64,000 nucleotides of DNA from an uncultured Candidatus Saccharibacteria bacterium (GCA_964513645.1 CAZENF010000001.1:135303-199302); one strand, 5' to 3'; positions 11,815-37,641 are shown, counted from the stretch's first letter. Program-made: numbers and translations. Notes: generated by a model not told the origin, from the letters alone.

Positions 11815-11887
11815 CCGCCCATAGCTCAGTTGGTAGAGCAGCTCCCTTTTAAGGAGATGGTCGTAGGTTCGACTCCTACTGGGCGGA
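11815..11887 (+). tRNA. tRNA-Lys (anticodon UUU), no encoded CCA
   Basis: 73-nt cloverleaf: acceptor CCGCCCA/TGGGCGG, D-arm GCTC-AGTTGGTA-GAGC, anticodon loop CTTTTAA, T-arm GTAGG-TTCGACT-CCTAC. Confidence 0.9.
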
Positions 11888-13342
11888 CAAGATTGAAAAG
11901 TCAGCATTTTTAGGAGTGTTGGCTATTCTAAAAAATGGTTTTTTATATTGTATTTCCTGAATTTCTTTATTTTCGAACTGGATGTTCCAAAGTACGGAAT
12001 TTAGTATTTGATACCTTTCTGAATCTTCTCCAAATAAAAAGTCATTTTTAGCATTTTTGGCTTGTAAAAATACTTCTTTTGTTTGTTCCAAAGTAGTTAG
12101 GGCAGAATTAATATTACCCTTCTTGATATGGCCTAGTTGGGCTTCTAATTCAACTCTTTGATTATTTAGTTCGAGCATTTTCTCATCATAGAGGTCTTTT
12201 CTAATTGTTCCGGAAGCAAAACCATCAGTCAGTCGTGATTCTTTCTCCTTGATCGAATTTAGCTCATTCTGAACGTTTTTAGATAGTACCTCGACTCGGT
12301 TATTACTCAAACCAATCTTCTGTTTAGCGGCCTCATACATAATTTCGATTGCCTCATCATCAAAAGCCAAATCACCAAGCTTGTCAGCAATCAATCTGGC
12401 TATATATTCTTCTCGCATATATGATTTTCCCTGTTCGCAATTGCCTTTGCCATTAGTACAGTAATAATATCTGTGTCCTCGTTTTAGGGAAGCTGTAAGC
12501 ATACAACCACACTCTTTACATCTCATCGAACCTCTCAACGGAAAGAACAATGTTTTTTGTTTTGGCCTGGAAGCCTGATTAATAACCTCTTGGCACCGAT
12601 CGAATAATTCTTTTGAAACAATAGGTTCAAATTTACCTAAATATTCCTCTCCATTCTTGGCCATAATTCCATAATAAATTTTATTATTTATATGCCGATG
12701 AATACTTCCTAAGAACATCTTGCCTCCAGATTTAGTTCTTAAACCTTCCTCGTAGAGCATATCTGAAATATCCTCAAAACTTTTAGTTCCAGAGGCATAT
12801 AACTCAAATATTCTTTTCACCCAATGGGATTTATCATTCGGGAATAATTGTTTAGTAGACGAATCACGAGAATATCCAAAAGGAACTTGAAACGGCCACC
12901 TGCCCTGTCGCAAACTTTCACGATTACCCCTTTTTACATTTTCAGCCAAATCACGGCTATACTGATTAGCCATACCGAAATGAACTAAAATCATTAACAC
13001 GTTGTCTTTTGGAAGATGAATTCCCTGATAGGTTCTAATTTCTTTAATAATATTTTTCTGAAGAAGATCTATTATTTGGCCGCCGTCAATTAAGTTTCTT
13101 GCCAACCTGTCCTCTTTCCAGCAAAGAATAGCATCTGCTTTTCCGCTAGTAATCATTTTTATCATTTGGGCAAATATTGGCCGCCCGAGAGATTTAGCTG
13201 ACTGGCTTTCTTCAAATATTTTAATAACTTTTAAATTATCCCTTATTGCGATTTCAAGAAGCTCTGTTTTTTGAGCATCCAAAGACATGACTTGTCTGTC
13301 TTCCGATTCAGTAGATTTTCGGCAATAAATTATATATCTCAT
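11876..13342 (-). CDS. Large serine recombinase (integrase)
   Basis: N-terminal resolvase catalytic domain (YCRKSTESEDRQVMSLDAQ), recombinase domain, a zinc ribbon (CKECGC…YYYCTNGKGNC) and a coiled coil. The 3' end overlaps the tRNA-Lys 3' end. Confidence 0.9.
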   Translation of the reverse strand: MRYIIYCRKSTESEDRQVMSLDAQKTELLEIAIRDNLKVIKIFEESQSAKSLGRPIFAQMIKMITSGKADAILCWKEDRLARNLIDGGQIIDLLQKNIIKEIRTYQGIHLPKDNVLMILVHFGMANQYSRDLAENVKRGNRESLRQGRWPFQVPFGYSRDSSTKQLFPNDKSHWVKRIFELYASGTKSFEDISDMLYEEGLRTKSGGKMFLGSIHRHINNKIYYGIMAKNGEEYLGKFEPIVSKELFDRCQEVINQASRPKQKTLFFPLRGSMRCKECGCMLTASLKRGHRYYYCTNGKGNCEQGKSYMREEYIARLIADKLGDLAFDDEAIEIMYEAAKQKIGLSNNRVEVLSKNVQNELNSIKEKESRLTDGFASGTIRKDLYDEKMLELNNQRVELEAQLGHIKKGNINSALTTLEQTKEVFLQAKNAKNDFLFGEDSERYQILNSVLWNIQFENKEIQEIQYKKPFFRIANTPKNADFSILSAQ

Positions 13343-14070
13343 TTTTCTTCGTAAGTTTTTCTGTTTATAATCCCCACAAATTCATTCATACCATGCCATT
13401 CATAGATAGGCTTTCTTTTAGCATACTTTTCAGCAATTCTTTTTGCAACCTTTTTTCTCATAACTATTTCTTTTGGAAAGCCATGGGATATCCTAAGAAG
13501 CCTCATAGCATTAAACATTACTTGTTCTCCACCCTTGGTGATATATCCGGTGATATAAGTTGCCAGCTTTCCAGAACCGTCAGTTTTTCTCGCATCCACA
13601 TATCCTTCTCCCCAGAGATTCGCAAGAACTCGGGTACTTCGCTCCTCTCCATAGGAAATAATCCGTCTACCAACGCACGTATCTCCGAGAGACAATGGCA
13701 CGTTAAAAATAAGGCCATGGAAGTGTATACGTCCCCTTGGCGATAATTCCGGGACGAAAAGTGAATATGGTTTGCCATATTTAGTTCGCAACCGCATTTG
13801 GAAAATGCGTAAGGAATCATTTGCAAAAGAGGCATCTGATGCATCTCCAGCAAAGGTGAGCGTGACCAAAATCGGACATCCAAATTCTTTAAGAGCAGCA
13901 TGCACGCGCCGCATACATATTTTTCTTGTCCTCCAAATATTATCGGGTCGCCTAACGCCGTATATGGTACGCTTCTTTCTGCGACGACGTACGCATATTT
14001 TGGGCGGGGCTTTTTCGAACGTTGTGACTTCAATAATTTTTCCATATTTTTTAACAATATTAATCATCAT
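13339..14070 (-). CDS. Rolling-circle replication initiator (HUH endonuclease, two-Tyr type)
   Basis: Motif I ILVTLTF, motif II HFHGLIF (HUH), motif III YITGYITK. Its stop overlaps the recombinase start. Confidence 0.75.
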   Translation of the reverse strand: MMINIVKKYGKIIEVTTFEKAPPKICVRRRRKKRTIYGVRRPDNIWRTRKICMRRVHAALKEFGCPILVTLTFAGDASDASFANDSLRIFQMRLRTKYGKPYSLFVPELSPRGRIHFHGLIFNVPLSLGDTCVGRRIISYGEERSTRVLANLWGEGYVDARKTDGSGKLATYITGYITKGGEQVMFNAMRLLRISHGFPKEIVMRKKVAKRIAEKYAKRKPIYEWHGMNEFVGIINRKTYEEK

Positions 14071-14293
14071 TTTTGCAATTGTGAGGGTATATCAAGTCTT
14101 GGGGATTGGACGTCTCGTCGGGCGCTTCGCGCACCCCGCCGAGACTATCCGAACCTACCCCAGCAATTGCCAAATAAAAATCAGCAAACGAATCCAAATA
14201 TTCCTCGGCCTCTGCAGGAGTTAAAATATCGCCGTATCTATCGGCAAAATACTTTTGAATCCGTTGAATTAAATTAAGACTAAATTTGCTCAT
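14060..14293 (-). CDS. Hypothetical small acidic protein
   Basis: 77-aa ORF upstream of Rep with no recognisable motif. Confidence 0.3.
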   Translation of the reverse strand: MSKFSLNLIQRIQKYFADRYGDILTPAEAEEYLDSFADFYLAIAGVGSDSLGGVREAPDETSNPQDLIYPHNCKNDD

Positions 14294-14410
14294 ATACTCA
14301 GTTTCGCAATTGCCAAAAACAACTTTTAGATAACTTCAGAACGAATAAAAAATAAAAAAGACCCAGTAAAAAGGGCCTTTCGAGAAGCGGCTATAAACAA
14401 TAGCTAAAAG

Positions 14411-15289
14411 TTATTCCATATTGTCCAAGGAATATTCATAGATTTTATTCAGAGAGTATCCGCTGGTATCATGCCGGATAATTAAATCCTCCGTAAGCTT
14501 TAACTTCTGACGGAACGCCTTGTTGGTTCGGCTTATTTCCTGCATGATTATTCCCGGTCTTTGCTTGGTTAATTCTTCAAGCTTAGAAAGCTTTGCTAAT
14601 TCCCGAGATAAATTCTTTATGATGACAAACCTCTTTGAGCCACGACGAATTGGGTAATTAAGTTTCTTGTTTTTTACTACTCTATAAATACCCAGCGAAT
14701 CATCTATAAAAATTTTAATCTTTTCTTGAGATTCTGCTTTTTCTGGTTCATCCGTTATTTTCTCGACTTCCGGTATAAATTGAATATGGAACTTTCTTAG
14801 CTCATTTTTGTAATAACTTCTTTCTCCTTCGTAAGCCTTGGCATAGGATTTTAATCCCTCCTTAGACCATTTGAAATAATTTTTAGGATTCTTATGATAA
14901 CCGCGCCTAAGAACATTCTTTAATCCTTTAAGCATAATTAAAGCAACCGGATCTTGGTCTTCATCAAATTCATCAGTAGTCATATAATCCTCAAGGGGGA
15001 AATATATTTTAATGTAGAGAGTTAAATAATGGGCGGTATATAAATTATATCGCTCGAGCTTAGATATCTGCTCTGATCTTAATCTTGCGTTTGCATCCTC
15101 GGTTTTAGAATCCAAAATTTTAATATTAGTTTTACGATATTGTTTTTCTGTGTCATTAATAATCTTGGCTAGGGCAGGAGTTTTAACTATAAAATCAATG
15201 TATTTATGTACATTTTCATAAAATTCGGAATCAGAATTGCTCTGAAGCGCAGCATCATATCTGATTTTAAGCCCACCCATTAAATCCAT
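14411..15289 (-). CDS. Hypothetical protein (island cargo)
   Basis: 292 aa, charged and helical, with no recognisable motif. Confidence 0.45.
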   Translation of the reverse strand: MDLMGGLKIRYDAALQSNSDSEFYENVHKYIDFIVKTPALAKIINDTEKQYRKTNIKILDSKTEDANARLRSEQISKLERYNLYTAHYLTLYIKIYFPLEDYMTTDEFDEDQDPVALIMLKGLKNVLRRGYHKNPKNYFKWSKEGLKSYAKAYEGERSYYKNELRKFHIQFIPEVEKITDEPEKAESQEKIKIFIDDSLGIYRVVKNKKLNYPIRRGSKRFVIIKNLSRELAKLSKLEELTKQRPGIIMQEISRTNKAFRQKLKLTEDLIIRHDTSGYSLNKIYEYSLDNME

Positions 15290-15349
15290 GCACAGGATAC
15301 TAACATATAAATTAGATTTTTTTAATACTGGTGCTATACTAATTTTGCA

Positions 15350-16156
15350 ATGAAACCATACTATGATAAAAATAATTTCAAACTATATCAGGCAAACTGC
15401 CTAGATCTACTATCCGAGCTCCCAGAAAATTCCGTTGATATGATCTTTGCCGATCCACCCTACAATCTCTCTAATGGCGGTTTTTCCGTTCATGCCGGCC
15501 GAATGGTCAGTGTTAACAAGGGCGATTGGGATAAAAGCAAAGGATTTAAAGATGATTATAATTTTCACTATAGCTGGATGGAGGCTTGTAGAAGGGTTTT
15601 AAAGCCACATGGTACACTCTGGGTTAGCGGAACATATCATTCAATATATCAGTGTGGACATGCTCTCCAAGCCCTTAATTATCACATCCTAAACGATATT
15701 GCCTGGTTTAAGCCAAACGCTTCACCCAATTTAAGCTGCCGATTCTTTACCGCAAGCCACGAAACATTAATCTGGGCTAGAAAAGAAAAGAAGGCAAAGC
15801 ATATCTTTAATTATGATTTAATGAAAAACGGCGAATGGCCGGAAGATAAATTAAAAAAGCCAGGCCTACAAATGAGATCTGTATGGTCAATGGGAACTCC
15901 AAAACCGATTGAAAAAAGATTCGGAAAACACCCTACACAAAAACCGGAAGATCTGTTAAAAAGAATAGTATTAGCCAGTACAAAGAGGGGGGATCTTGTA
16001 GTTGATCCTTTCACTGGAAGCTCAACAACGGGGCTTGCATCATATCTACTCGGCAGGAAATTTATAGGCGTTGATACCGAAAAAAAATATCTGGACTTGT
16101 CTATAAAAAGATTCGAAGAGTTAGATAAAAATTTAAAAAATAAGTCTAACAAATAA
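15350..16156 (+). CDS. DNA methyltransferase (N6-adenine/N4-cytosine, beta-class)
   Basis: Motif IV IFADPPYNL precedes motif I VDPFTGSSTTG, which is the beta-class order. Confidence 0.85.
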   Translation: MKPYYDKNNFKLYQANCLDLLSELPENSVDMIFADPPYNLSNGGFSVHAGRMVSVNKGDWDKSKGFKDDYNFHYSWMEACRRVLKPHGTLWVSGTYHSIYQCGHALQALNYHILNDIAWFKPNASPNLSCRFFTASHETLIWARKEKKAKHIFNYDLMKNGEWPEDKLKKPGLQMRSVWSMGTPKPIEKRFGKHPTQKPEDLLKRIVLASTKRGDLVVDPFTGSSTTGLASYLLGRKFIGVDTEKKYLDLSIKRFEELDKNLKNKSNK

Positions 16157-16157
16157 T

Positions 16158-16682
16158 ATGAAAAAATTTGGAATTGGAGGAGCAAATACAAAAACAGGGC
16201 TAGTCTTTGAGGGCAAAGTTGATTTTTTAACCTTTATCGCTAAGCAAAAAAATTACTCTGTTAAAGGTGCGAATATTTTTTATAACAGTGATGAAGTTGC
16301 CATGTCGTTTAAAAAATATGGCCTTTATAAGTACTTAGAAAGCAAAGGGATTGATTATAAAAAATTCATATCAAAAAGACTTCTTCCGGATGATGCTATC
16401 TATGTAATAGCCAACAATCATTTTTATATACTTGAGATTAAATTTCAGGAAGTCGGCGGATCCGTTGATGAAAAACTCCAAACCTGTGATTTCAAAATTA
16501 AACAATATAAAAAACTACTCTATAGTTTAAATGTTGAAGTTGAATTTATTTATATTTTAAGCGAATGGTTTCAGAAGCCGGAATATAAAGACGTTCTTGA
16601 TTATATAATTTCTATTCCGGGCTGTTCTTTCTACTTTAATTACTTGCCTCTCCAAAAAATAGGCCTTCCCATACCAGAATAA
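16158..16682 (+). CDS. Putative type II restriction endonuclease partner of the methyltransferase
   Basis: Starts 1 nt after the MTase stop. Possible PD-(D/E)xK core (PDDAIYVIANNHFYILEIKFQ). The assignment is by context. Confidence 0.45.
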   Translation: MKKFGIGGANTKTGLVFEGKVDFLTFIAKQKNYSVKGANIFYNSDEVAMSFKKYGLYKYLESKGIDYKKFISKRLLPDDAIYVIANNHFYILEIKFQEVGGSVDEKLQTCDFKIKQYKKLLYSLNVEVEFIYILSEWFQKPEYKDVLDYIISIPGCSFYFNYLPLQKIGLPIPE

Positions 16683-16826
16683 ACGCGTTTTTGGCTCGCC
16701 AAAAATTATACCACGCGGGGACCCCTACTTCGTCACCCCGCGTGGTGGCGAGCCTTGCGAGCCAAGGGAAAACGCTTCACAAATCGACTAAATTCTGATA
16801 TATTCGCCGTGTTTAATAAATAAGTC

Positions 16827-17258
16827 ATGATCTCATACGAAGAACTTAAGAAGATATCCAGAACTCGTATTGCCGAAGCGCAAATTCTTTTTGATAACGA
16901 AAAATTTGATGGGTCAATCTATTTATGTGGCCATGCGATCGAGATAGCTTTAAAGGCCATAATATGTAAAAATTTAAGAGGGTCTACTCAAAGTTTTGGT
17001 CATATACCAAGCACCATATCTGAATTCAAAACTGTAGCCGAAATGAAAACTCATAAATTAGATGAGCTTCTAGCCGCAACAGGACTACAAGTTGAAATCA
17101 CATCAAAACCAGCAAGATGGACTGCTTGGAGCACGCTATTAAAATGGAATCCTGAAATCAGATACTCGCCGATTAAGGGGAGGCTCATGAAAACTAGCGC
17201 TGAAGAAGTTATTAATTCTGCTAATAAATTGTTACATTTTTTCTGGCGTCAAGTCTAA
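16827..17258 (+). CDS. HEPN domain protein
   Basis: Helical protein with a HEPN-like pattern (GSIYLCGHAIEIALKAI … THKLDELL … EIRYS). Confidence 0.55.
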   Translation: MISYEELKKISRTRIAEAQILFDNEKFDGSIYLCGHAIEIALKAIICKNLRGSTQSFGHIPSTISEFKTVAEMKTHKLDELLAATGLQVEITSKPARWTAWSTLLKWNPEIRYSPIKGRLMKTSAEEVINSANKLLHFFWRQV

Positions 17259-17269
17259 ATAGAATAACA

Positions 17270-17635
17270 ATGGAAGATATTATAAAAAAATTAAATAAGG
17301 TCCTAGAATCAATTCTTAAAGAAAGAGATGTTGTTTTGTTTGCTGTTATTAAAAGAGAAGATGCCGAATTGTGGGATATAGTCATTTCAGGTAATCAACT
17401 TGATAATCAAGAAAACTTGAGGTGGATAATAGGCCTGATAAATAACGTCTTAGAAAAGAATGAGATGACAGCATTCTCTCGCTTGTTATTATTAAATACT
17501 GACGAGGATTTTGTAAAAAATCTAACAAAAACTTTTGGATTTACAACTAAAGACGGTCGTATGGAACTGAAAAACGTAAGAATTAATAATATATTTATTA
17601 AGCACGCATATTTACTCAGGAGTAGGACAAAATAA
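17270..17635 (+). CDS. Hypothetical protein, possibly a degenerate minimal-nucleotidyltransferase-like partner of the HEPN protein
   Basis: VVLFAVIKREDAELWDIVI resembles the MNT core (FGSxARG…DiD) but with the catalytic residues replaced. Confidence 0.3.
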   Translation: MEDIIKKLNKVLESILKERDVVLFAVIKREDAELWDIVISGNQLDNQENLRWIIGLINNVLEKNEMTAFSRLLLLNTDEDFVKNLTKTFGFTTKDGRMELKNVRINNIFIKHAYLLRSRTK

Positions 17636-17639
17636 ATTT

Positions 17640-18413
17640 ATGTTCAATGATAACATACAGTATAAAAAGAAGGTGATAAGAAGAGTCTTGGCTTATTTTA
17701 GCGGTGGTAACACTGGGGTTGGTTCAGGATTTTTTGTAAATAAGAATGGAATATTTTTAACGTGTTTTCATGTTGCATTTGGGGGAGAACTTAAAAATCT
17801 AAGAAATGATCCAGATTTTATTGCCATTAAAGAATCCGATGAACATAAAAAATTAGAGACTTGGTATTCTAATAAAATTAATAAAATAGAAGTTGAACTG
17901 CCCGATTCATCCAAAGAAGAATTAAAATTAGTTAGCTTTGATGAAAAATATGATATTGCAGTCTTAAAACTGGAAAATAAAGAAAAAATTAGAGATATAG
18001 ACAACATAAAATTTGATTTTAAAAAACAGCTTAAACAGGGTGACCATGTTTTCTTTGGAGGATTCCCGATAAGCTATCCATATAAAGCAGAAGAGTCGCC
18101 TTTTGCAATAAACACAGGGATGGTTTCTAGTTTCCCTAACACTATTATCGGAGGAGACTTCTATGAACATGCCCAGATAAATTCAGTAAATTTAGGAGGA
18201 AATAGTGGTGCTCCATTATTTATAAAAAATAAAAATAAAGTCATAGGAATTATTAATGGGAATATGAATTGGGGTAGTGATTTTGTGGTATTTAAAAATA
18301 AATCTGGCAAAGAAGAGGTGGGGCCTCTGAGAGTTCCCTTAAGTATAGCCTACGCAACACCCGTAAGCTTACTTAAAAAAGAAAGTAAGGTTTTTAAATC
18401 AGCTATAAGCTAA
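17640..18413 (+). CDS. Trypsin-like serine protease (S1 family)
   Basis: His motif LTCFHVA. Ser motif GGNSGAPLF. Confidence 0.75.
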   Translation: MFNDNIQYKKKVIRRVLAYFSGGNTGVGSGFFVNKNGIFLTCFHVAFGGELKNLRNDPDFIAIKESDEHKKLETWYSNKINKIEVELPDSSKEELKLVSFDEKYDIAVLKLENKEKIRDIDNIKFDFKKQLKQGDHVFFGGFPISYPYKAEESPFAINTGMVSSFPNTIIGGDFYEHAQINSVNLGGNSGAPLFIKNKNKVIGIINGNMNWGSDFVVFKNKSGKEEVGPLRVPLSIAYATPVSLLKKESKVFKSAIS

Positions 18414-18724
18414 ATAGCACTGTTCCAACATCCTCCCACAGGGCGGACCACATCGGATTGAAGGCGCTGAAACGCGCCTTCCGTCCTTATGAAATCAGCA
18501 TTACTTGCGGTTCGAACTCTGAGCAAATGGGCGAGCTCGTGAGGCAGTTCGGAATATCTATGCGGCCTTCTTTTCGTGTTCTTTTGCCAGATGCAAAAGG
18601 GCCAAAAGCTTACGAATCTCAGTCATTATCGTGTTCGAATTTTCTCTGACGTGGCGGACCTAGGCTTAAGTTTCCAGATGATGGGCGTCGCAAAATGCCC
18701 ACTCAAGTATCCTTATAAATAGGC

Positions 18725-25048: not shown

Positions 25049-26827
25049 TTATCCATTATTTTTCATTGCTTCTTCGAGTACTCTTTTGAGACCGTCGGTA
25101 TCAACTTCAATTTTCGCTCTTTCACGTTTTTCTTCTATCTTTTTGCCATGAAAATTAACAGGACTGTTCCTGAAAGCATCATTGAGGGATAATCCCGAAC
25201 CAGGTCTAGAAGGATTTGGCCGCGATGCTTGGGGTTGAACAATTTTCTTCGGTTCAAGACCGATTGTCCTGGCTTGTCCTGATGGAGGATAGGCCGGCCT
25301 TTCTTCAGTCACTTTAGGCATGGGTGCGGGTTTAGGCATTTCGGCCGGTTTGGGTGCAGTAGCCGGAACCTGGTTCACCGGTTCAACTGTCTGATAACTC
25401 GGTCTTGGACGAGGCGCTTCCGGTCGCGGCATCGGCGGTCTCATCTGTTCTCTCGATTCATAAGGCGCTTGGCGGTAAGGCCGCCTTTCAAAAGACTGGC
25501 CTTGGCTCTTCTGTTCGGCATTCTTTGCAGCCTGTTCCATTCCCAAAGCCCACTCGCTGATGCTTTTCTCTACATTCTCACGTGGCGTAGCATAGTTCTG
25601 TCTCGAATACTGAACTATCTCTTCGCGGTTTGATTTTTTGATCTTGGCCAAAGGAGTAATGGTGGTGGCTGAAAATCCTTTTGACGACACGCCGTCAATC
25701 ATTAGTTTCAAATAAATATTGTATTTCCCAAGATTAACAATATCCGACATCATAAAATCAGGCGCGAACCATTTTTCTAAGAATTCGGCATCTTCAGCGC
25801 CGACACGGAAAGAGATTATAGTTCCGACATTTCCGAAAACCGCATCTCTGACTGGTTCTTCCATTTGTTTGATATACTGATGGGCCATTATCAGGCTTAG
25901 ATGGAATTTCCTGGCCTCGGACAAGATGTTAGCGAAGGATTCGGTCGCAAAATGTTGGAACTCGTCAACATAAAGATAAAAATCATTTCTCTGTTCCTCC
26001 GGAATATCCACTCTGGACATGGCCGCAAGTTGGATCTTGGTAACCAAAAGCGCGCCAAGCAAACGCGAAGCGTCCTCCCCTATTTTGCCGCGGGAAAGGT
26101 TTACGATAAGGATCTTTTTCTCATCCATTATCTTGCGGATATCGATGGTCGAATGGACCTGGCCGATGATGTTACGGATAAGATTGTTCGAGATGAACTG
26201 ACCGATCTTGTTTTGAATGGCCGGAGTTGCTTCCTGCATATAACGATCGGTGTATTTGGCAAACTCGTTGACCCAGAAAGATTTAACGATGGGGTCCTTT
26301 AAATTATCCACGACCTTTTTGCGGTATTCCTTTTCGGATAACATCCGGTTTATGCCGAGCAAGGTAGCGTCTGGATATTCAAGAAGGGCTAAGATAGTGT
26401 TGTTCAAAATATATTCCATTCTGCCCGACCAGACCTCAACCCCGAATATTTTCTTGAACACACCCAAGAGGCCAGAGGCAACAAGGTGCCGGTACTCAAA
26501 ACCAACTTTCTCCATCACGTTAAAGGCGATTGGAAAAGCGAGATCGCCCGGGTCAAAATAAATGACGTCTTTTATCCTTTCTTCGGGTATGTAATCGAGA
26601 AGCCCATCAGATGGATCACCGTGAGGATCTATGAAGGCCAACCCATGCCCGGCTTCAATATCCTGGATAGCCATATTCTTAAGGAATTCGGTTTTACCCA
26701 TGCCGGTAGAACCAACCACATACATATGGCGGCGACGATCATCCGGTTTAATTCCAAATCGCCAGCGCTGGCTTCGGAAATTAGTTTCACCGATGACAAC
26801 TATTTCGTTGTTCTTTTTTGACGGCAT
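25049..26827 (-). CDS. VirD4/TraG/TraD-like coupling-protein-type ATPase (FtsK–HerA superfamily) with a disordered Pro-rich C-terminus
   Basis: Walker A GSTGMGKT, Walker B LYVDEFQ and an IMAHQ motif. The last ~170 aa are P/Q/A-rich low complexity. Confidence 0.65.
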   Translation of the reverse strand: MPSKKNNEIVVIGETNFRSQRWRFGIKPDDRRRHMYVVGSTGMGKTEFLKNMAIQDIEAGHGLAFIDPHGDPSDGLLDYIPEERIKDVIYFDPGDLAFPIAFNVMEKVGFEYRHLVASGLLGVFKKIFGVEVWSGRMEYILNNTILALLEYPDATLLGINRMLSEKEYRKKVVDNLKDPIVKSFWVNEFAKYTDRYMQEATPAIQNKIGQFISNNLIRNIIGQVHSTIDIRKIMDEKKILIVNLSRGKIGEDASRLLGALLVTKIQLAAMSRVDIPEEQRNDFYLYVDEFQHFATESFANILSEARKFHLSLIMAHQYIKQMEEPVRDAVFGNVGTIISFRVGAEDAEFLEKWFAPDFMMSDIVNLGKYNIYLKLMIDGVSSKGFSATTITPLAKIKKSNREEIVQYSRQNYATPRENVEKSISEWALGMEQAAKNAEQKSQGQSFERRPYRQAPYESREQMRPPMPRPEAPRPRPSYQTVEPVNQVPATAPKPAEMPKPAPMPKVTEERPAYPPSGQARTIGLEPKKIVQPQASRPNPSRPGSGLSLNDAFRNSPVNFHGKKIEEKRERAKIEVDTDGLKRVLEEAMKNNG

Positions 26828-32740: not shown

Positions 32741-34369
32741 TTATCTTGCAACAACCATCGGATGACTGCCGATAATAAAGTTAACGATAGCCGCCCCGAG
32801 ACGAAGGAAAGGGTTGGATGAGGTCGGTGATGGAGGTGGAGGCAATGGAGGCTTAGGCGGCGGAGTTCCAGTAAAAGTACCGGGGCCTTCCTGGTGAGGC
32901 ATATTTGTTCCCGGACTGACCGAAGGTCTGACACAGGTGTGATTATCCGAATTCCACTGGCCGCCTAACTGGACGCATTTATCCGCATAACTTGAACACT
33001 GGCTGCCGTCCCAATAGTAGTACGGCTGACAGGCAGGCCTTGTCGGCATAGCTTCTCCGGGACTGGTTCCAGGCATTCCATGTTCCGACATCCCCTGCCC
33101 GGGCATCGGTGAACCGTTCAGACCTTGAGATTGTTCAAAACATTTTTTAACAACGGCTATCACATCGGGACTCAAATCCTTTGTATTCGGCGGAGTGTCT
33201 CCCGAGAAAAAGCTATAATTAGTCTCGCTCAAGTTTTCTTTAAGACATGAGAGTATCTGGGGCGGGAGTTTCATCGGATGAGGCGAACCCTGCGGATTAC
33301 CCTGGCCATTGGTCTGACCACCGCTCTGGCCTTGGAAACATTCTTTGGCTTTAGAGGTTGTCGTGCCGCTGGGCAGCAATTGACCGTTCTCAAGTTTGGT
33401 GATCGTGTCATCGCCAAGTTTCTGTTTTAAGCAGTTGAGAGTTTGGGGTGGCAAGTTTTGAAGTTTTTGTTTGACCTGGTCTGAATTTGATTTTATATCT
33501 TCGATAGTTTTCTTCGGAATAAGATTGTGTTCCTGGGCGAACTTGAGACAGGTATCGTGATTGGCGGCATCGTTGCAAAAAGCCGAGCACTCTTCTCTGC
33601 TCTTACACCCGCCCGGACCTTCACCTTTTGTTTCCTTAAAATCTCCGGCCTGATCTTTGGTCACAACTCCGAGCTTAAGTAAGAAATCAGCGCACTCCGT
33701 CGAATGAGAAGAATCGGAACAATATTGATGGCAATCTTGAGTTGTTTTGCACCCTCCGGGTGTCTGGCCGGACTGAACCAGTGAAAGAAATTTGGCTACC
33801 TTATCCGACTGGTCTTTGGGAATTAAATTATGTTCCTTTGCAAAAGAAAGGCATTCGTCCTGATGAGACGGGTCAGAACAGTATTGCCGACAAGTATCTT
33901 TACTTGAACAGCCGCCAGGACCGGTAGTCTCTTGTAAGGTGGAGTTAATTTTTGAATCAGCACTCGGAGTCTGTGGGGGTTTGGTCAGACCGTGAGCTTG
34001 GGCAAAGGTCTTACATTCTGATTGATTGTCAGGATTCTGGCAGTAAGTCCGACAGGAATCAAAACTGTCACAGCCGCCGGGACCGCCGCCGTTTTTTATG
34101 GCTTGAGCAAGATTACTAGCAGTTCCGCTATCACCGTTATTCGTTTTGGGAGTTAAATTGTGAGCCTGGGCAAAGGCCTGACAGGCAGGAATATTGTTAG
34201 GATCGTTGCAATACTGCCGGCAGGAATCCTTATCCTGACAATTTCCAAGCTCGGCTATCGGAAAAGTAATATTGGCGGTGGTCGCGGCAAAGACCACAAC
34301 CGCGAACAAGCCGCTTATGACCGAGGTAGCGATGATGAGTTTCTTATTCAAATGGGTTTTGATAAGCAT
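32741..34369 (-). CDS. Secreted/anchored protein with five ~52-aa Cys repeats (C-x5-C-x3-C-x8-C) and a Pro-rich C-terminus
   Basis: N-terminal TM/signal. Repeated PGGC(x)5C(x)3C(x)8C…FAQ(A/E)HNL units. A PPLPPPPSP tail. Confidence 0.6.
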   Translation of the reverse strand: MLIKTHLNKKLIIATSVISGLFAVVVFAATTANITFPIAELGNCQDKDSCRQYCNDPNNIPACQAFAQAHNLTPKTNNGDSGTASNLAQAIKNGGGPGGCDSFDSCRTYCQNPDNQSECKTFAQAHGLTKPPQTPSADSKINSTLQETTGPGGCSSKDTCRQYCSDPSHQDECLSFAKEHNLIPKDQSDKVAKFLSLVQSGQTPGGCKTTQDCHQYCSDSSHSTECADFLLKLGVVTKDQAGDFKETKGEGPGGCKSREECSAFCNDAANHDTCLKFAQEHNLIPKKTIEDIKSNSDQVKQKLQNLPPQTLNCLKQKLGDDTITKLENGQLLPSGTTTSKAKECFQGQSGGQTNGQGNPQGSPHPMKLPPQILSCLKENLSETNYSFFSGDTPPNTKDLSPDVIAVVKKCFEQSQGLNGSPMPGQGMSEHGMPGTSPGEAMPTRPACQPYYYWDGSQCSSYADKCVQLGGQWNSDNHTCVRPSVSPGTNMPHQEGPGTFTGTPPPKPPLPPPPSPTSSNPFLRLGAAIVNFIIGSHPMVVAR

Positions 34370-34631
34370 CTGAAATAGGGTTCGTTGACGTATTGAAAGG
34401 ATTGGTCTGGGGAATACTATTGGTCGGGGAAGAGGCCTTGTCGTAAATATCGGCCCCTACGCCTGAATTCACGGATTGGGGCAAAGGGGTCGCCTGGGAC
34501 ACGGTAGAAACAACAGGTTGTGCGGTTTTTAAAACGCCGGCTTCAAAACGGATATAAACAACTATTACAAGCAGCACGGCAAAAACGCTTAGGGCAATAA
34601 TGAATTGATTTTTCTCCGAGATCGGGGGCAT
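34344..34631 (-). CDS. Small membrane-anchored protein
   Basis: 95 aa with an N-terminal TM helix and an S/T/N/P-rich C-terminus. Confidence 0.35.
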   Translation of the reverse strand: MPPISEKNQFIIALSVFAVLLVIVVYIRFEAGVLKTAQPVVSTVSQATPLPQSVNSGVGADIYDKASSPTNSIPQTNPFNTSTNPISDAYQNPFE

Positions 34632-34683: not shown

Positions 34684-36186
34684 TTATCCGTCTAAACTTT
34701 CTTTTTCCCTGCCTTTAGCGGGCTTTTGATGTTCGAGCCATTCCTTTATAAGCATTGTTGCCCTGACATCATCTTCATTATACTTAAGTATTTTTTTCAT
34801 TATCGAGTCATCTTTTTTCTCAAGCCATTCATTATACCAGACGACCGATTCTGCTCCACCGGCTTCAGGGTCATTCCATTTGTAGCCGAGATACCCGGCT
34901 ACATCTTTTAAGCTGTAAAAATATAAAGGCAAGACGGCAGAATCAACTACTTGAGCATGAAGATCGATGGTATTGTCATGAAATTTATCCATTAAGGATG
35001 CCGGCGCACCATAACGGAGCGACAAGCGGTCAAAAACCTGCCTTTCATAATAGGCATAGTGGTAGATGACAAAATCATCAAGTCCGGCCAGGAAATCAAG
35101 AAATTTTTGCCATATTTTTTCCTCGTCTTTTTTTTCATTCGCTAGCAAATATTCATACTTTGCCTGACCACCGGTTTTAACAAGATAGCCCAACAGATAA
35201 TCAATATCGCGGGTTGGATCTGACTCGATATCGAAATATATCTCATGTTTAACCGTTGGCAAAACGCTTTTTCTCAATATCAACGGCTGCTGGGAAAGCA
35301 GGACCCTCGCCTGATTCGACATTCTGATGATTTTATCAAAAGGCCAGTCTTCGAGTTTTGACTGAAGCTCATTCACATCCGAGTTTGCAAGGTCAGAAAC
35401 GGTTTTAATTCCGATGCCATAGAATCTTCTTTGGTCGGCCTGACTTAAACGGTAAATGAGCGAGACATCGTCGCAATCTTTGGCGTCAGAGAAACACAGG
35501 GAATACCATGGGGTTTTTTTACAGGTTGATTTAATGAAAGGCGCCGGTTTTTCCCCGTCGAGGATCTTTTCTATTTGAAGACGGGTCAAATGGAATTGAT
35601 CGATAAAATCATCAACCTTGAACGAACGTTCGTTGCCTTGAGCGTCCATAACATATGCCTCCTTGGGCCTGACCCCCTGAAGACGCTCGAGCATCAAACT
35701 ATAAAAAATAAGTTGGAATTTATATTCGTCCCGCAGATCAAGAGTTGATTGAACATCATAGACAACATAATGCCAGTCACCTAAATTGGACTTACCCGGC
35801 CGGGCTTCCAATAAGTCAGGAATCCCCGCCCAGTCTTCCGACATCAGAACGCCGTGATAAATATTCTTGCCTTGTTTCATCAATTCAAGAGTGGCCAAAA
35901 AACCTTCTTCGAGGTCCTTTAAAAGTTCGGGTTTTATTTCTTCGAATCTTTTATGTTCTCTCAACGAACCGGCCGAATCGGAGGATTTGCCTTTATAGAT
36001 AAGCTCCATTATCGCCGGAGTTTTTTTCCTTTTGGTGGCATCAGCGTAAATGTCGTACCAAATCCAATGCGGGCATTGGAAAAATTTATAAAAATGTTCG
36101 GCGTAGAGTTTGGGCGCAGTTGGCATAATTATATATTGAGGTCTTGTATAACCTGAAAACGCGAAGCCATATCCACGTAGTGACAA
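34684..36186 (-). CDS. RecB-family PD-(D/E)xK nuclease with a C-terminal RNase-H-like domain (COG2251/TM0106-like)
   Basis: N-terminal FQCPHWIWYDIY, a GIPDLLE … YVVYDVQ core, a Cys cluster CKKTPWYSLCFSDAKDC, and a C-terminal YFDIESDP motif. Confidence 0.6.
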   Translation of the reverse strand: MSLRGYGFAFSGYTRPQYIIMPTAPKLYAEHFYKFFQCPHWIWYDIYADATKRKKTPAIMELIYKGKSSDSAGSLREHKRFEEIKPELLKDLEEGFLATLELMKQGKNIYHGVLMSEDWAGIPDLLEARPGKSNLGDWHYVVYDVQSTLDLRDEYKFQLIFYSLMLERLQGVRPKEAYVMDAQGNERSFKVDDFIDQFHLTRLQIEKILDGEKPAPFIKSTCKKTPWYSLCFSDAKDCDDVSLIYRLSQADQRRFYGIGIKTVSDLANSDVNELQSKLEDWPFDKIIRMSNQARVLLSQQPLILRKSVLPTVKHEIYFDIESDPTRDIDYLLGYLVKTGGQAKYEYLLANEKKDEEKIWQKFLDFLAGLDDFVIYHYAYYERQVFDRLSLRYGAPASLMDKFHDNTIDLHAQVVDSAVLPLYFYSLKDVAGYLGYKWNDPEAGGAESVVWYNEWLEKKDDSIMKKILKYNEDDVRATMLIKEWLEHQKPAKGREKESLDG

Positions 36187-36854
36187 TGGTCGCAGTGGCC
36201 CTTTTTTGGTTTGTCGATAGGCGCTTTTTCAGAGCGGGCTATTTCAACCGCTCTGGTAAAAGCTTCGCCGACCCAGTCTGTGTTGACCACGACCGGCCGG
36301 ACATCTTCCTTAAACTTAAGAGCATTGGCAAAACCATCCTCGCCTTCTTTGATGACCTGATAAAAAACAAAGAACGCTTCAGGATAAGTCTGATGCCCTT
36401 TCTGTTTCAGAATATAATTGTAAACTTCCATCTGCCGGCGATAGTCTTCGTAAATGGTAATTTCTTTTGAACCGGAGGATTTGTAATCGATGACCGCCAA
36501 AGAACCGTCATCAAATTCGAGAATATCGTCCACCGCACCGTAAAGTGTTGCGTTCAAATGCTCGTCATAATAAGCTACGCCTTTGAAATTATTCCTCCAT
36601 TCGGATAATTCCGGTCCGGTAAACAACTTAGCGTCCTTGATGCCGAATTTTTTCAAAACCGGCGGCAAAGTGCCTTCATTGCGGTATTTGTCGAATTCTT
36701 TTTTAACCAGGAAATCCACCGCGGCAGATAAAGTATAGGGATAGCCGGGCGGACGTTTTATCTTATGATGGAGGTCAAGCCAAAAACATCTCGGGCATTC
36801 GAGAAAAAGATTAAGCCCGCTCCGTGAAATTTTTATTGTACCTAAATTACTCAC
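36129..36854 (-). CDS. Cas4-like PD-(D/E)xK exonuclease (DUF83 family)
   Basis: LECPRCFWL, AVIDYKSS (DYK) and C-terminal HCDHC. Four Cys suggest an Fe-S cluster. Confidence 0.7.
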   Translation of the reverse strand: MSNLGTIKISRSGLNLFLECPRCFWLDLHHKIKRPPGYPYTLSAAVDFLVKKEFDKYRNEGTLPPVLKKFGIKDAKLFTGPELSEWRNNFKGVAYYDEHLNATLYGAVDDILEFDDGSLAVIDYKSSGSKEITIYEDYRRQMEVYNYILKQKGHQTYPEAFFVFYQVIKEGEDGFANALKFKEDVRPVVVNTDWVGEAFTRAVEIARSEKAPIDKPKKGHCDHCHYVDMASRFQVIQDLNI

Positions 36855-36915
36855 TAAGTTATTCTACACCATTAACATTAAAAAACAAAAACCCGCATTT
36901 AAGCGGGTCTATTAA

Positions 36916-37641
36916 TTACTTCTTCAATCTCTGTCTTAATTTCTGCCAATTACCGTCAAATATTTCATCAGCTAATCCCCAACTGACCGTATCCCGTGGG
37001 CTCAAATAGACGTCTTCTTTTTTATCCATCTGGCTTTGGAGAATTTCTTTTATATATCTCTTGGGCTTTTTTGAATAAATACCCTTTTCCTTCATTCGGC
37101 TTGCATATATCTCGAGCATGTTTGGATTATCCCTTTCCGCCCATTTCATAGTTGAATGGGAAGTTTTCCACGTTCCAGAAACAGCGATCGTACCTTCGTG
37201 AAACATAAAACTGCTGTTGGGCATCATCACACGCTTGTTGGCGGCCTGAAAAATTATTGAGCTCATTGAACGGGCATGAGTATAGTTAAGAATAACGATC
37301 GGATTTTGGGCAAAACGTATCGTATCATATATCGCCATGCCCTCACTCCAATCTCCACCATCCGTTTTCATATGAATAAGGATAGGGCGCTTAGAGTCAA
37401 TATCCGCAAGTATATGCAGATTCTTTATCAAGCGCGCACTCATCTGATATTCGACACCTGGCTCTTCACGATTATCCCATTCGTCATCAGCATCGTATTC
37501 CATTTTTTCCCCGGTCAAATATATCGCAAACTGTCGGACATCAAGATTCCACTCCTGGACTGCGTAGATAGATTCGTGCATTTCTGTGCCGAACATTCGG
37601 GACTTAAACGATTTTCGGCTTTGAGACATTCGGTAACTCAA
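36916..37641 (-). CDS. ClpP-family serine protease with an N-terminal extension
   Basis: ILIHMKTDGGDWSEGMAIYDT … ARSMSS … MFHEG … LSPRDTVSWGLADEI aligns to the ClpP Ser/His/Asp regions. Confidence 0.7.
   Translation of the reverse strand: MSYRMSQSRKSFKSRMFGTEMHESIYAVQEWNLDVRQFAIYLTGEKMEYDADDEWDNREEPGVEYQMSARLIKNLHILADIDSKRPILIHMKTDGGDWSEGMAIYDTIRFAQNPIVILNYTHARSMSSIIFQAANKRVMMPNSSFMFHEGTIAVSGTWKTSHSTMKWAERDNPNMLEIYASRMKEKGIYSKKPKRYIKEILQSQMDKKEDVYLSPRDTVSWGLADEIFDGNWQKLRQRLKK

Follow-up and report, generated by a model that had tools for sequence, protein, structure and literature searches.

A ClpP-fold protease and a Cas4-like/TM0106 nuclease pair encoded side by side in a Candidatus Saccharibacteria genome are probably neighbours by gene order rather than by function

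CRISPR-associated Cas4 nucleases (PF01930/TIGR00372) combine a PD-(D/E)xK core and a QxxxY motif with four cysteine ligands in a 1+3 arrangement. RecB-type folds also drive the end-resection machines AddAB, AdnAB, RecBCD and Dna2, with two nuclease domains per machine in AddAB and AdnAB. Solo Cas4 genes are enriched and vertically inherited in candidate phyla radiation (CPR) genomes and in those of DPANN archaea (Hudaiberdiev et al. 2017, PMC5704561), and MrfB (YprB) is a characterised 3'-5' DNA-repair exonuclease of mitomycin repair (PMC11194089). Here we analyse three adjacent genes, g1, g2 and g3, in a 64-kb stretch of DNA (the window) from an uncultured Candidatus Saccharibacteria bacterium (GCA_964513645.1, CAZENF010000001.1:135303-199302), to which our statements about this genome refer. 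They encode a ClpP-fold protease, a Cas4-like nuclease and a TM0106-family nuclease, respectively, and an earlier note on this DNA had read them as a single operon that could be a DNA-repair or processing module or an uncharacterised defence system. We consider it probable that they are instead two independent units, placed together by gene order and not by function, of which the nuclease pair processes DNA ends. The locus is an ordinary one and not a new protease-nuclease system, and its components belong to families that are already catalogued and uncharacterised.

ORF calling recovered three co-directional open reading frames (ORFs), all on the minus strand, at the coordinates that the earlier note had reported (Table 1). 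The 61-nt spacer between g1 and g2 holds an intrinsic-terminator-like hairpin, GACCCGC-UUAAAU-GCGGGUU followed by UUUGUUUUUU (U-run), which a terminator scan assigned an 8 bp stem and RNA folding a centroid fold of -13.2 kcal/mol. Upstream of g1, a consensus scan returned a sigma-70-like promoter candidate; the count of promoter-like sites across the region was not above that of shuffled sequence, so this promoter is weak evidence. Given the hairpin between g1 and g2 and the promoter-like site 5' of g1, we predict a monocistronic g1 and a g2-g3 bicistron, and not the three-gene operon proposed earlier, which the hairpin contradicts. A single operon would lack an internal terminator or promoter and keep its gene order among relatives; g1-g2-g3 has the terminator-like hairpin, and its order is not kept. 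The probable start of g1 is the ATG at 37629, giving a protein of 237 residues in agreement with the public gene call (237 residues). For g3 the ATG at 36126 is the likely start because its homologues are about 480 residues long (all 120 among the matches listed); this gives 480 residues in place of the 500 noted before. From this start the g2/g3 junction reads TAA-tt-ATG, a 2-nt gap that suggests tight coupling of the two genes, and the genes described as overlapping or abutting are thus co-directional without g2/g3 overlap.

We surveyed the gene neighbourhood from both sides. On the protease side, species-representative genomes scanned with the family alignment yielded 14 loci from diverse Patescibacteria (L006-L019), and at none of the 14 did tblastn or profile hidden Markov models (HMMs) place a relative of g2 or of g3 within 10 kb of that gene; neither search found a g2/g3 family gene near the ClpP-like gene at L004/L005 or L107. 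On the nuclease side, scanning metagenomes with the g3 alignment turned up 80 loci, of which 70 remained when dereplicated at 95% identity, and neighbours were counted at loci with enough flank, namely 47 for 3 kb upstream and 49 for 3 kb downstream, with 30 upstream and 33 downstream for the wider flank of 9.5 kb. Of the 47 dereplicated loci, 2 had a ClpP-like gene no further than 3 kb upstream of g3, as did 1 of the 30 when the limit was 9.5 kb, and none was found beside those nearest relatives of g3 that had enough flank upstream (L020 and L025, 80% and 79% identity). Elsewhere the ClpP-like gene adjoins a second ClpP paralogue (L004/5/9, L011, L010), HtrA, SmpB, a proteasome-like gene or the arginyl-tRNA synthetase gene. 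The slot upstream of g2 is likewise variable, being filled by M16, M32 or JAB peptidases, a peptidyl-prolyl isomerase, a CTP-transferase or an alpha/beta hydrolase. Among related lineages, all three genes lie near one another in L001-3, L026/L108 and L045 only, and there the order, the spacing and the orientation of the PD-(D/E)xK gene vary. In related genomes the protease gene thus stands apart and seldom accompanies the nucleases, which is one of the two findings that the earlier note had named as its refutation, and the coupling of a protease to two nucleases, as suggested earlier, finds no counterpart in a conserved triad. What looked like an operon of a protease and two nucleases dissolves when its transcription signals and the statistics of its neighbourhood are examined.

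The two nuclease genes keep closer company. In 34 of 47 loci a g2 gene is found no more than 3 kb upstream of g3, 31 times on its strand, and the two genes belong to a conserved Paceibacteria backbone with the order secA … g2 - g3 - secD - secF. Within this backbone 40 of 49 loci have secD/F no more than 3 kb after g3, and 33 of 33 have it no more than 9.5 kb after; 23 of 30 have secA no further than 9.5 kb upstream. The flanks in the window are housekeeping genes (SecA, Maf, DsbA-like, VKOR, NUDIX, SecD and SecF, together with a CTP-transferase/DAC-like protein, an alpha/beta hydrolase and a sigma-like protein), and the closest proteins in the databases carry the names Yanofskybacteria, Taylorbacteria and Parcubacteria (Patescibacteria/CPR). 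Compared with the relative at L001-3, identity is 70% for g3, 69% for SecA, 66% for the CTP-transferase and 62% for the ClpP-like protein; across the clade g3 is 60-82% identical, comparable to SecA. This level of conservation suggests that g3 evolves as a core housekeeping protein, unlike defence genes. Both nuclease families are inherited vertically and evolve slowly, with a conservation close to that of SecA. The often adjacent Paceibacteria pair of a solo Cas4-like and a TM0106 gene is therefore a candidate for the unexplained function of solo Cas4 in bacteria with small genomes (PMC5704561).

As the earlier note had recognised, g2 is a DUF83/Cas4-like protein with four cysteines. It matches PDDEXK_1 (1.4e-12, 48.5 bits, cutoff 22) and scores below the cutoffs of the Cas4 models (PF01930, 19.4 versus 22.7; TIGR00372, 31.6 versus 65). 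The motifs D110, D123-Y-K125 and Q141…Y145 are invariant in the family and make up a complete PD-(D/E)xK signature, and the cysteines, exactly four and invariant across the family (C20-x2-C23 … C221-x2-C224), are putative metal or Fe-S ligands. In its core, QxxxY motif and four ligands g2 therefore resembles Cas4; it differs in its cysteine arrangement, which is 2+2 (CxxC…CxxC), and it falls outside CRISPR-associated Cas4 both by model cutoff and by neighbourhood, with no cas1, cas2 or array around it. Every feature of the Cas4-like PD-(D/E)xK (PF12705)/solo Cas4 group was found in g2, and the CRISPR-free context is that of the solo Cas4/PF12705 proteins of CPR (PMC5704561). An AlphaFold2 model of g2 (predicted local distance difference test, pLDDT, 83) was closest by Foldseek to the AdnA nuclease domain, type I-C Cas4, SSO0001, lambda exonuclease, ACE1, Dna2 and EXO5, and superposes on type I-C Cas4 and SSO0001 with a template-modelling (TM) score of ~0.45-0.5. 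These fold neighbours are DNA-end processing nucleases, ACE1 being an Argonaute-associated Cas4-like protein. A sequence search against solved structures returned nothing useful for g2, and its protein had no tblastn match in the GenBank phage collection.

g3 matches the TM0106 family model end to end (TIGR03491, 2.5e-99, 333.3 bits, cutoff 97.45; residues 29-484 on profile positions 3-462) and RNase_H_2 (PF13482; 3.8e-33, 115 bits), in line with its earlier description as a RecB-family nuclease with a C-terminal RNase-H-like domain. Like g2, it stays below the Cas4 cutoffs (PF01930, 18.1 versus 22.7; TIGR00372, 34.3 versus 65). The C-terminal RNase-H-fold domain carries a complete DEDDy set, D299, E301, D388, Y449 and D453, invariant in 71-72 of 72 sequences, and would thus qualify by motif as a DEDD (DnaQ-like) 3'-5' exonuclease. 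Across the same 72 sequences C18, C202, C211 and C218 of the N-terminal Cas4-like domain are invariant, as are D104 and D124. The canonical PD-(D/E)xK lysine, which an intact TM0106 active site would include, is replaced in the window by Gln126, and position 126 in the Paceibacteria clade is Q in 53, K in 15 and R in 4 of the 72 sequences. This clade thus has a TM0106 protein in which the canonical catalytic lysine is replaced and all else is kept. By contrast, distant stand-alone relatives (27-45% identity) and proteobacterial ones retain [DE]-x-K, and their C-terminal cysteines follow C-x2-C-x5-C rather than the C-x8-C-x6-C of the g3 clade. Retention of Lys126 went with the absence of g2 in a weak trend that was not significant (5/10 versus 30/38, Fisher p = 0.11, the loci not being phylogenetically independent). 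Profile-profile comparison of g2 with g3 gave a low-probability alignment in which the motifs were nonetheless placed consistently.

In the AlphaFold2 model of g3 the C-terminal domain alone is reliable, residues 1-130 having pLDDT <50. Foldseek returned weak matches to Dna2, a DnaQ domain, Cas4 and the MrfB core, their weakness reflecting the poorly modelled N-terminal nuclease domain; a sequence search against solved structures gave no match for g3. The C-terminal domain matched the MrfB core (8un9) with Foldseek probability 1.0, a TM score of 0.45 and 19% identity, and has all four acidic DEDD residues. MrfB is a DEDDh enzyme with a tetratricopeptide repeat (TPR) domain and a neighbouring MrfA/YprA helicase, whereas g3 is DEDDy (Y449) and has neither. 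The end-resection machines share the RecB-type fold with g2 and g3, the best Foldseek match being the AdnA nuclease domain for g2 and Dna2 for g3, and the g2-g3 locus likewise offers two nuclease domains. In contrast to those machines, g2 and g3 are small, separate proteins with no helicase or ATPase motor in or beside the pair, and g3 adds a DEDDy exonuclease domain that the machines lack.

The wider TM0106 family comprised 4239 cluster representatives at E <= 1e-3, and the nearest 150 are mostly stand-alone two-domain proteins of ~440-530 residues, as is g3; a literature search under the name TM0106 brought up unrelated papers only. On alphaproteobacterial plasmids (L100-L105) the same Cas4-like plus RNase_H_2 module, ~25% identical over 96% of g3, is fused to or followed by a DNA2/NAM7-type superfamily 1 (SF1) helicase, the fusions being ~1100 residues long with a C-terminal AAA_11/AAA_12 helicase and some being split into two genes. 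A divergently oriented WYL regulator precedes the TM0106-helicase in 6/6 loci examined, and on some plasmids HEPN, DUF3883, SbcCD-like, methyltransferase or SOS genes lie nearby. The helicase and the WYL neighbour are features of these proteobacterial forms; g3 has neither. The helicase fusion or adjacency supports a DNA-end processing chemistry for the family, which the CPR form would perform without a motor. As separate observations, the WYL-linked nuclease-helicase of the plasmids may itself be an uncharacterised module, and 3 kb from the TM0106 locus of L100 there are genes for a ClpP and a ThiF-family protein.

The protease encoded by g1 shares the S14 fold and the Ser-His-Asp triad with canonical ClpP. 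It matches Pfam CLP_protease over residues 63-229 (3.7e-23, 82.8 bits, cutoff 20.2), and hhalign aligned Ser125, His148 and Asp210 with the triad of E. coli ClpP, consistent with the intact triad described before; S125 and H148 are invariant in the family alignment, and D210 is Glu in a few relatives. It differs from canonical ClpP in scoring far below every NCBIfam ClpP equivalog or subfamily cutoff (46-70 bits versus 228-359), the best curated model being NF001368 (69.8 bits versus 249) and TIGR00493 giving 46.1 bits against 308.6. The N-terminal ~62 residues have no alignment to canonical ClpP, replace ~48 residues of the E. coli precursor and are conserved across the subfamily; the ClpP fold of the earlier account therefore stands, and its 75-residue N-terminal extension becomes ~62 unaligned residues. 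Canonical ClpP has an N-terminal axial-loop region and an AAA+ unfoldase as partner (ClpX, ClpA or ClpC). The Pfam scan of the window, which took in most ORFs of at least 220 residues, detected neither ClpX nor another AAA+ unfoldase, so the reported lack of a nearby clpX was confirmed over that set. In several Patescibacteria lineages a second, more divergent ClpP-fold paralogue (187-207 residues) lies near the g1-type gene (Table 1), which suggests a two-subunit protease there; the window has no such paralogue.

The g1 subfamily is also abundant in viruses, with 379 confirmed IMG/VR loci, many on contigs of 170-371 kb and many within terminase/portal/capsid modules. Our comparison with viral ClpP-like genes covered L109, L110, L106/L119 and L112-L191. 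On crAss-like contigs, relatives of ~48% identity occupy the protease slot in the order portal - protease - (scaffold-position gene) - major capsid. Another phage clade has the order ERCC4-type nuclease - protease - terminase - portal, the ERCC4-type nuclease being present in 17 loci, and in a jumbo-phage clade a phrog_298 exonuclease gene stands directly upstream of the protease gene in 9-10 loci. None of the 83 viral loci examined had a g2 or g3 family gene beside the ClpP-like gene. In a rough neighbour-joining tree, rooted on E. coli ClpP and on a second CPR ClpP paralogue, a virus-free Patescibacteria clade that includes g1 was nested in a mostly viral basal grade interleaved with six sequences derived from metagenome-assembled genomes (MAGs). 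It is possible, if doubtful, that the chromosomal ClpP of this and many other Patescibacteria is a domesticated phage head-maturation protease and not a canonical ClpP. If this were so, a housekeeping-looking protease of a major bacterial radiation would have been recruited from phages, and where it occasionally adjoins nuclease genes, this might be left over from the gene order of phages. g1 shares the S14 fold and triad with the ClpP-related head-maturation proteases (NF045542; PHROG 94, 2976 and 133), scoring 58.9 bits against NF045542, below its cutoff of 120; g1 and the other Patescibacteria copies differ in lying on chromosomes and in having no homologue of terminase, portal or capsid genes close by. 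A prophage origin of the locus itself was rejected, as its flanks are housekeeping genes and no TerL, portal or capsid homologue was found near g1 in the window or in L001-L099. Since phages use this subfamily in head modules, proteins annotated as ClpP in Patescibacteria call for caution, both in annotation and in inferences about Clp proteolysis.

The window contained no CRISPR-like repeats, and no cas genes were found among its ORFs scanned against Pfam, so the CRISPR-free setting noted earlier was borne out. In PADLOC, g1 had no match and g2 and g3 had generic, weak matches to Cas4/DruK-type nucleases; PADLOC-DB returned no system-specific component and no complete system. With this lack of a defence signature, the housekeeping flanks and the SecA-level conservation of g3, the suggestion that the locus might be an uncharacterised defence system loses its footing.

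These observations allow us to propose how the locus may be organised. The first unit would be g1, a monocistronic, self-compartmentalising ClpP-fold serine protease from a subfamily that occurs on Patescibacteria chromosomes and, widely, in phage head-morphogenesis modules. The second would be the g2-g3 bicistron, probably co-transcribed in the window, whose housekeeping nucleases would process the ends or flaps of DNA during repair or recombination of the chromosome. A 5'-end PD-(D/E)xK activity would come from g2 and a 3'-5' exonuclease activity from g3, whose Cas4-like domain would serve chiefly to bind DNA ends, given that its canonical lysine is Gln in most of the clade. In contrast to the proteobacterial relatives, both would operate without a fused helicase. 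The two nucleases possibly cooperate. Gene structure, domains and motifs, the transcription signals as features of the sequence and the neighbourhood counts are observed; the enzymatic activities, cooperation and cellular role of the nucleases are what we infer from them. A DNA-repair or processing module, as raised by the earlier note, thus remains plausible for the two nucleases and no longer includes the protease.

Several findings weigh against a cooperating pair and would fit g2 and g3 being adjacent through inherited gene order only, with separate pathways (for example, g2 as a general solo Cas4-like nuclease and g3 as an independent TM0106 exonuclease) and with the spacing in the window a local accident. 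Adjacency is the one argument for cooperation, and the secD/F counts serve as a control here: the g3-secD/F adjacency, which is non-functional, equals or exceeds that of g2-g3 in conservation. g2 is missing within 3 kb in 13 of 47 loci, and in four lineages its slot holds an inverted, 34%-identical paralogue. Among 36 same-strand loci the g2-g3 gap is at most 30 nt in just 9, 31-150 nt in 5, 151-1000 nt in 11 and above 1 kb in 11, so that it exceeds 150 nt in 22, and these wider gaps usually hold unrelated ORFs, some on the opposite strand. The g2 family is also far larger (5989 database matches, against at least 645, among 8000 candidates, for g3), and g2 probably often occurs without g3. The low-confidence model of g3 residues 1-130 counts against the proposed reading as well. 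Separate pathways nevertheless seem to us unlikely, if a serious contender: g2 shares the strand of g3 in 31 of the 34 loci, several distinct lineages have stop and start codons that overlap or abut, both proteins are end-processing nucleases of one superfamily, and the intact D-x-K of g2 beside the D-x-Q of g3 is at least compatible with complementation. We accordingly keep end processing by a g2-g3 pair, independent of g1, as the probable reading.

Other roles for the pair seem improbable. A g2-g3 system without the protease that degrades invading phage or plasmid DNA would have parallels in the distant TM0106-helicase fusions, which adjoin WYL genes and in some cases HEPN, DUF3883, SbcCD-like or methyltransferase genes, in a Cas4-like nuclease that limits plasmid maintenance in Synechococcus (PMC10653904), in solo Cas4 genes that adjoin restriction-modification genes in some DPANN genomes (PMC5704561) and in the weak PADLOC matches to Cas4 and DruK models. 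We regard it as improbable given that the pair sits in the secA … secDF backbone and not in a defence island, that g3 is conserved across its clade in a way that patchy, fast-evolving defence genes are not, and that no sensor, regulator, helicase or ATPase partner accompanies it; the viral loci examined have no g2 or g3 family gene beside the ClpP-like gene, the phage collection has no match to the g2 protein, and the candidate restriction-modification-type gene of the window, a DNA methylase, lies elsewhere, in the low-GC island at 11.8-18.5 kb. A role of g2 and g3 in breaking down imported or damaged DNA into mononucleotides, for salvage in the absence of de novo synthesis, would draw on the predicted 5'-end (PD-(D/E)xK) and 3'-5' (DEDDy) activities, which come from motifs and fold matches, on the housekeeping-level conservation of both genes and on the over-representation of solo Cas4-like genes in small-genome symbionts (PMC5704561). 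This too we hold to be quite improbable: com DNA-uptake genes are dispensable for fitness in the one genetically tractable Patescibacterium, a cultured Saccharibacterium (PMC10633639), which argues against DNA uptake as the nucleotide source, no transporter or nucleotidase genes are linked to the pair, and the proposal is purely inferential. Least credible is a single module of all three genes, protease-regulated or acting in defence. Besides the adjacency in the window and the few loci of varying order and orientation, it could appeal to phage ClpP-like genes, which often have a nuclease directly upstream (phrog_298, ERCC4-type), and to one Rhizobium plasmid on which 3 kb separate a ClpP gene from a TM0106-helicase pair. 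The phage nucleases, however, come from different families, flank the protease gene on its other side and belong to modules for packaging or heads, and the hairpin between g1 and g2, the unrelated genes that fill the slot upstream of g2, and the rarity or lack of the association in the g3-side, genome and viral surveys leave the triad largely refuted by neighbourhood statistics.

Two sets of genes beside the pair deserve description in their own right. In 10 of 70 loci (among them L020, L024, L025, L043, L055, L059, L064 and L001) a PaaX-like protein of 176 residues with a Cas2-like central domain (PF20803, 6.9e-23) is encoded between g2 and g3, perhaps as a regulator of local reach; the window lacks it. 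We considered that the locus might be what is left of a CRISPR adaptation module, made of Cas4-like, Cas2-like PaaX and DnaQ-like parts, and set this aside for the window, which has no PaaX-like gene, cas1 or array. Downstream of g3, the window encodes a Cys-rich repeat protein and a 95-residue protein (Table 1), both without a Pfam match; they recur in 1 of 62 related loci and are lineage-specific insertions between g3 and secD.

Table 1. Coordinates of the genes, putative signals and neighbouring features (window positions, except for the second ClpP-fold paralogue, which is given in the positions of its own loci)
Feature	Coordinates	Strand	Description
g1	36916-37641	minus	ClpP-fold (S14) serine protease, non-canonical subfamily; Pfam CLP_protease
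g2	36129-36854	minus	solo Cas4-like PD-(D/E)xK nuclease (PF12705 type), 241 aa
g3	34684-36126 (longer ORF to 36186)	minus	TM0106-family two-domain nuclease, 480 aa
Candidate sigma-70-like promoter of g1	37694-37666	minus	TTGACA-17-TATCCT, 10/12 matches in consensus scan
Intrinsic-terminator-like hairpin	36910-36889	minus	between g1 stop and g2 start
Second ClpP-fold paralogue	L004/L005/L009 6844-7467; L011 11720-12280; L010 15862-16470		CLP_protease ~1e-9 to 1e-10
Cys-rich repeat protein	32741-34369		542 aa, N-terminal hydrophobic segment, directly downstream of g3
Small protein downstream of g3	34344-34631		95 aa, hydrophobic start
Coupling-ATPase homologue and protein of unknown function	25049-26827		TraG/VirD4/HerA-like (592 aa), plus 428-aa protein
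Low-GC island	11815-18500		GC 0.33-0.38
tRNA-Lys	11815-11888		beside low-GC island
Large serine recombinase	11876-13342		low-GC island
Rolling-circle Rep	13339-14070		ORF2/G2P type, low-GC island
N6/N4 DNA methylase	15350-16156		low-GC island
Trypsin-like peptidase	17640-18413		low-GC island

Further from the locus, the TraG/VirD4/HerA-like coupling-ATPase homologue and the accompanying 428-residue protein form part of a block that many related loci conserve downstream of secDF. The low-GC island beside the tRNA-Lys gene probably represents a small mobile element that has integrated there and carries a module for modification or restriction.

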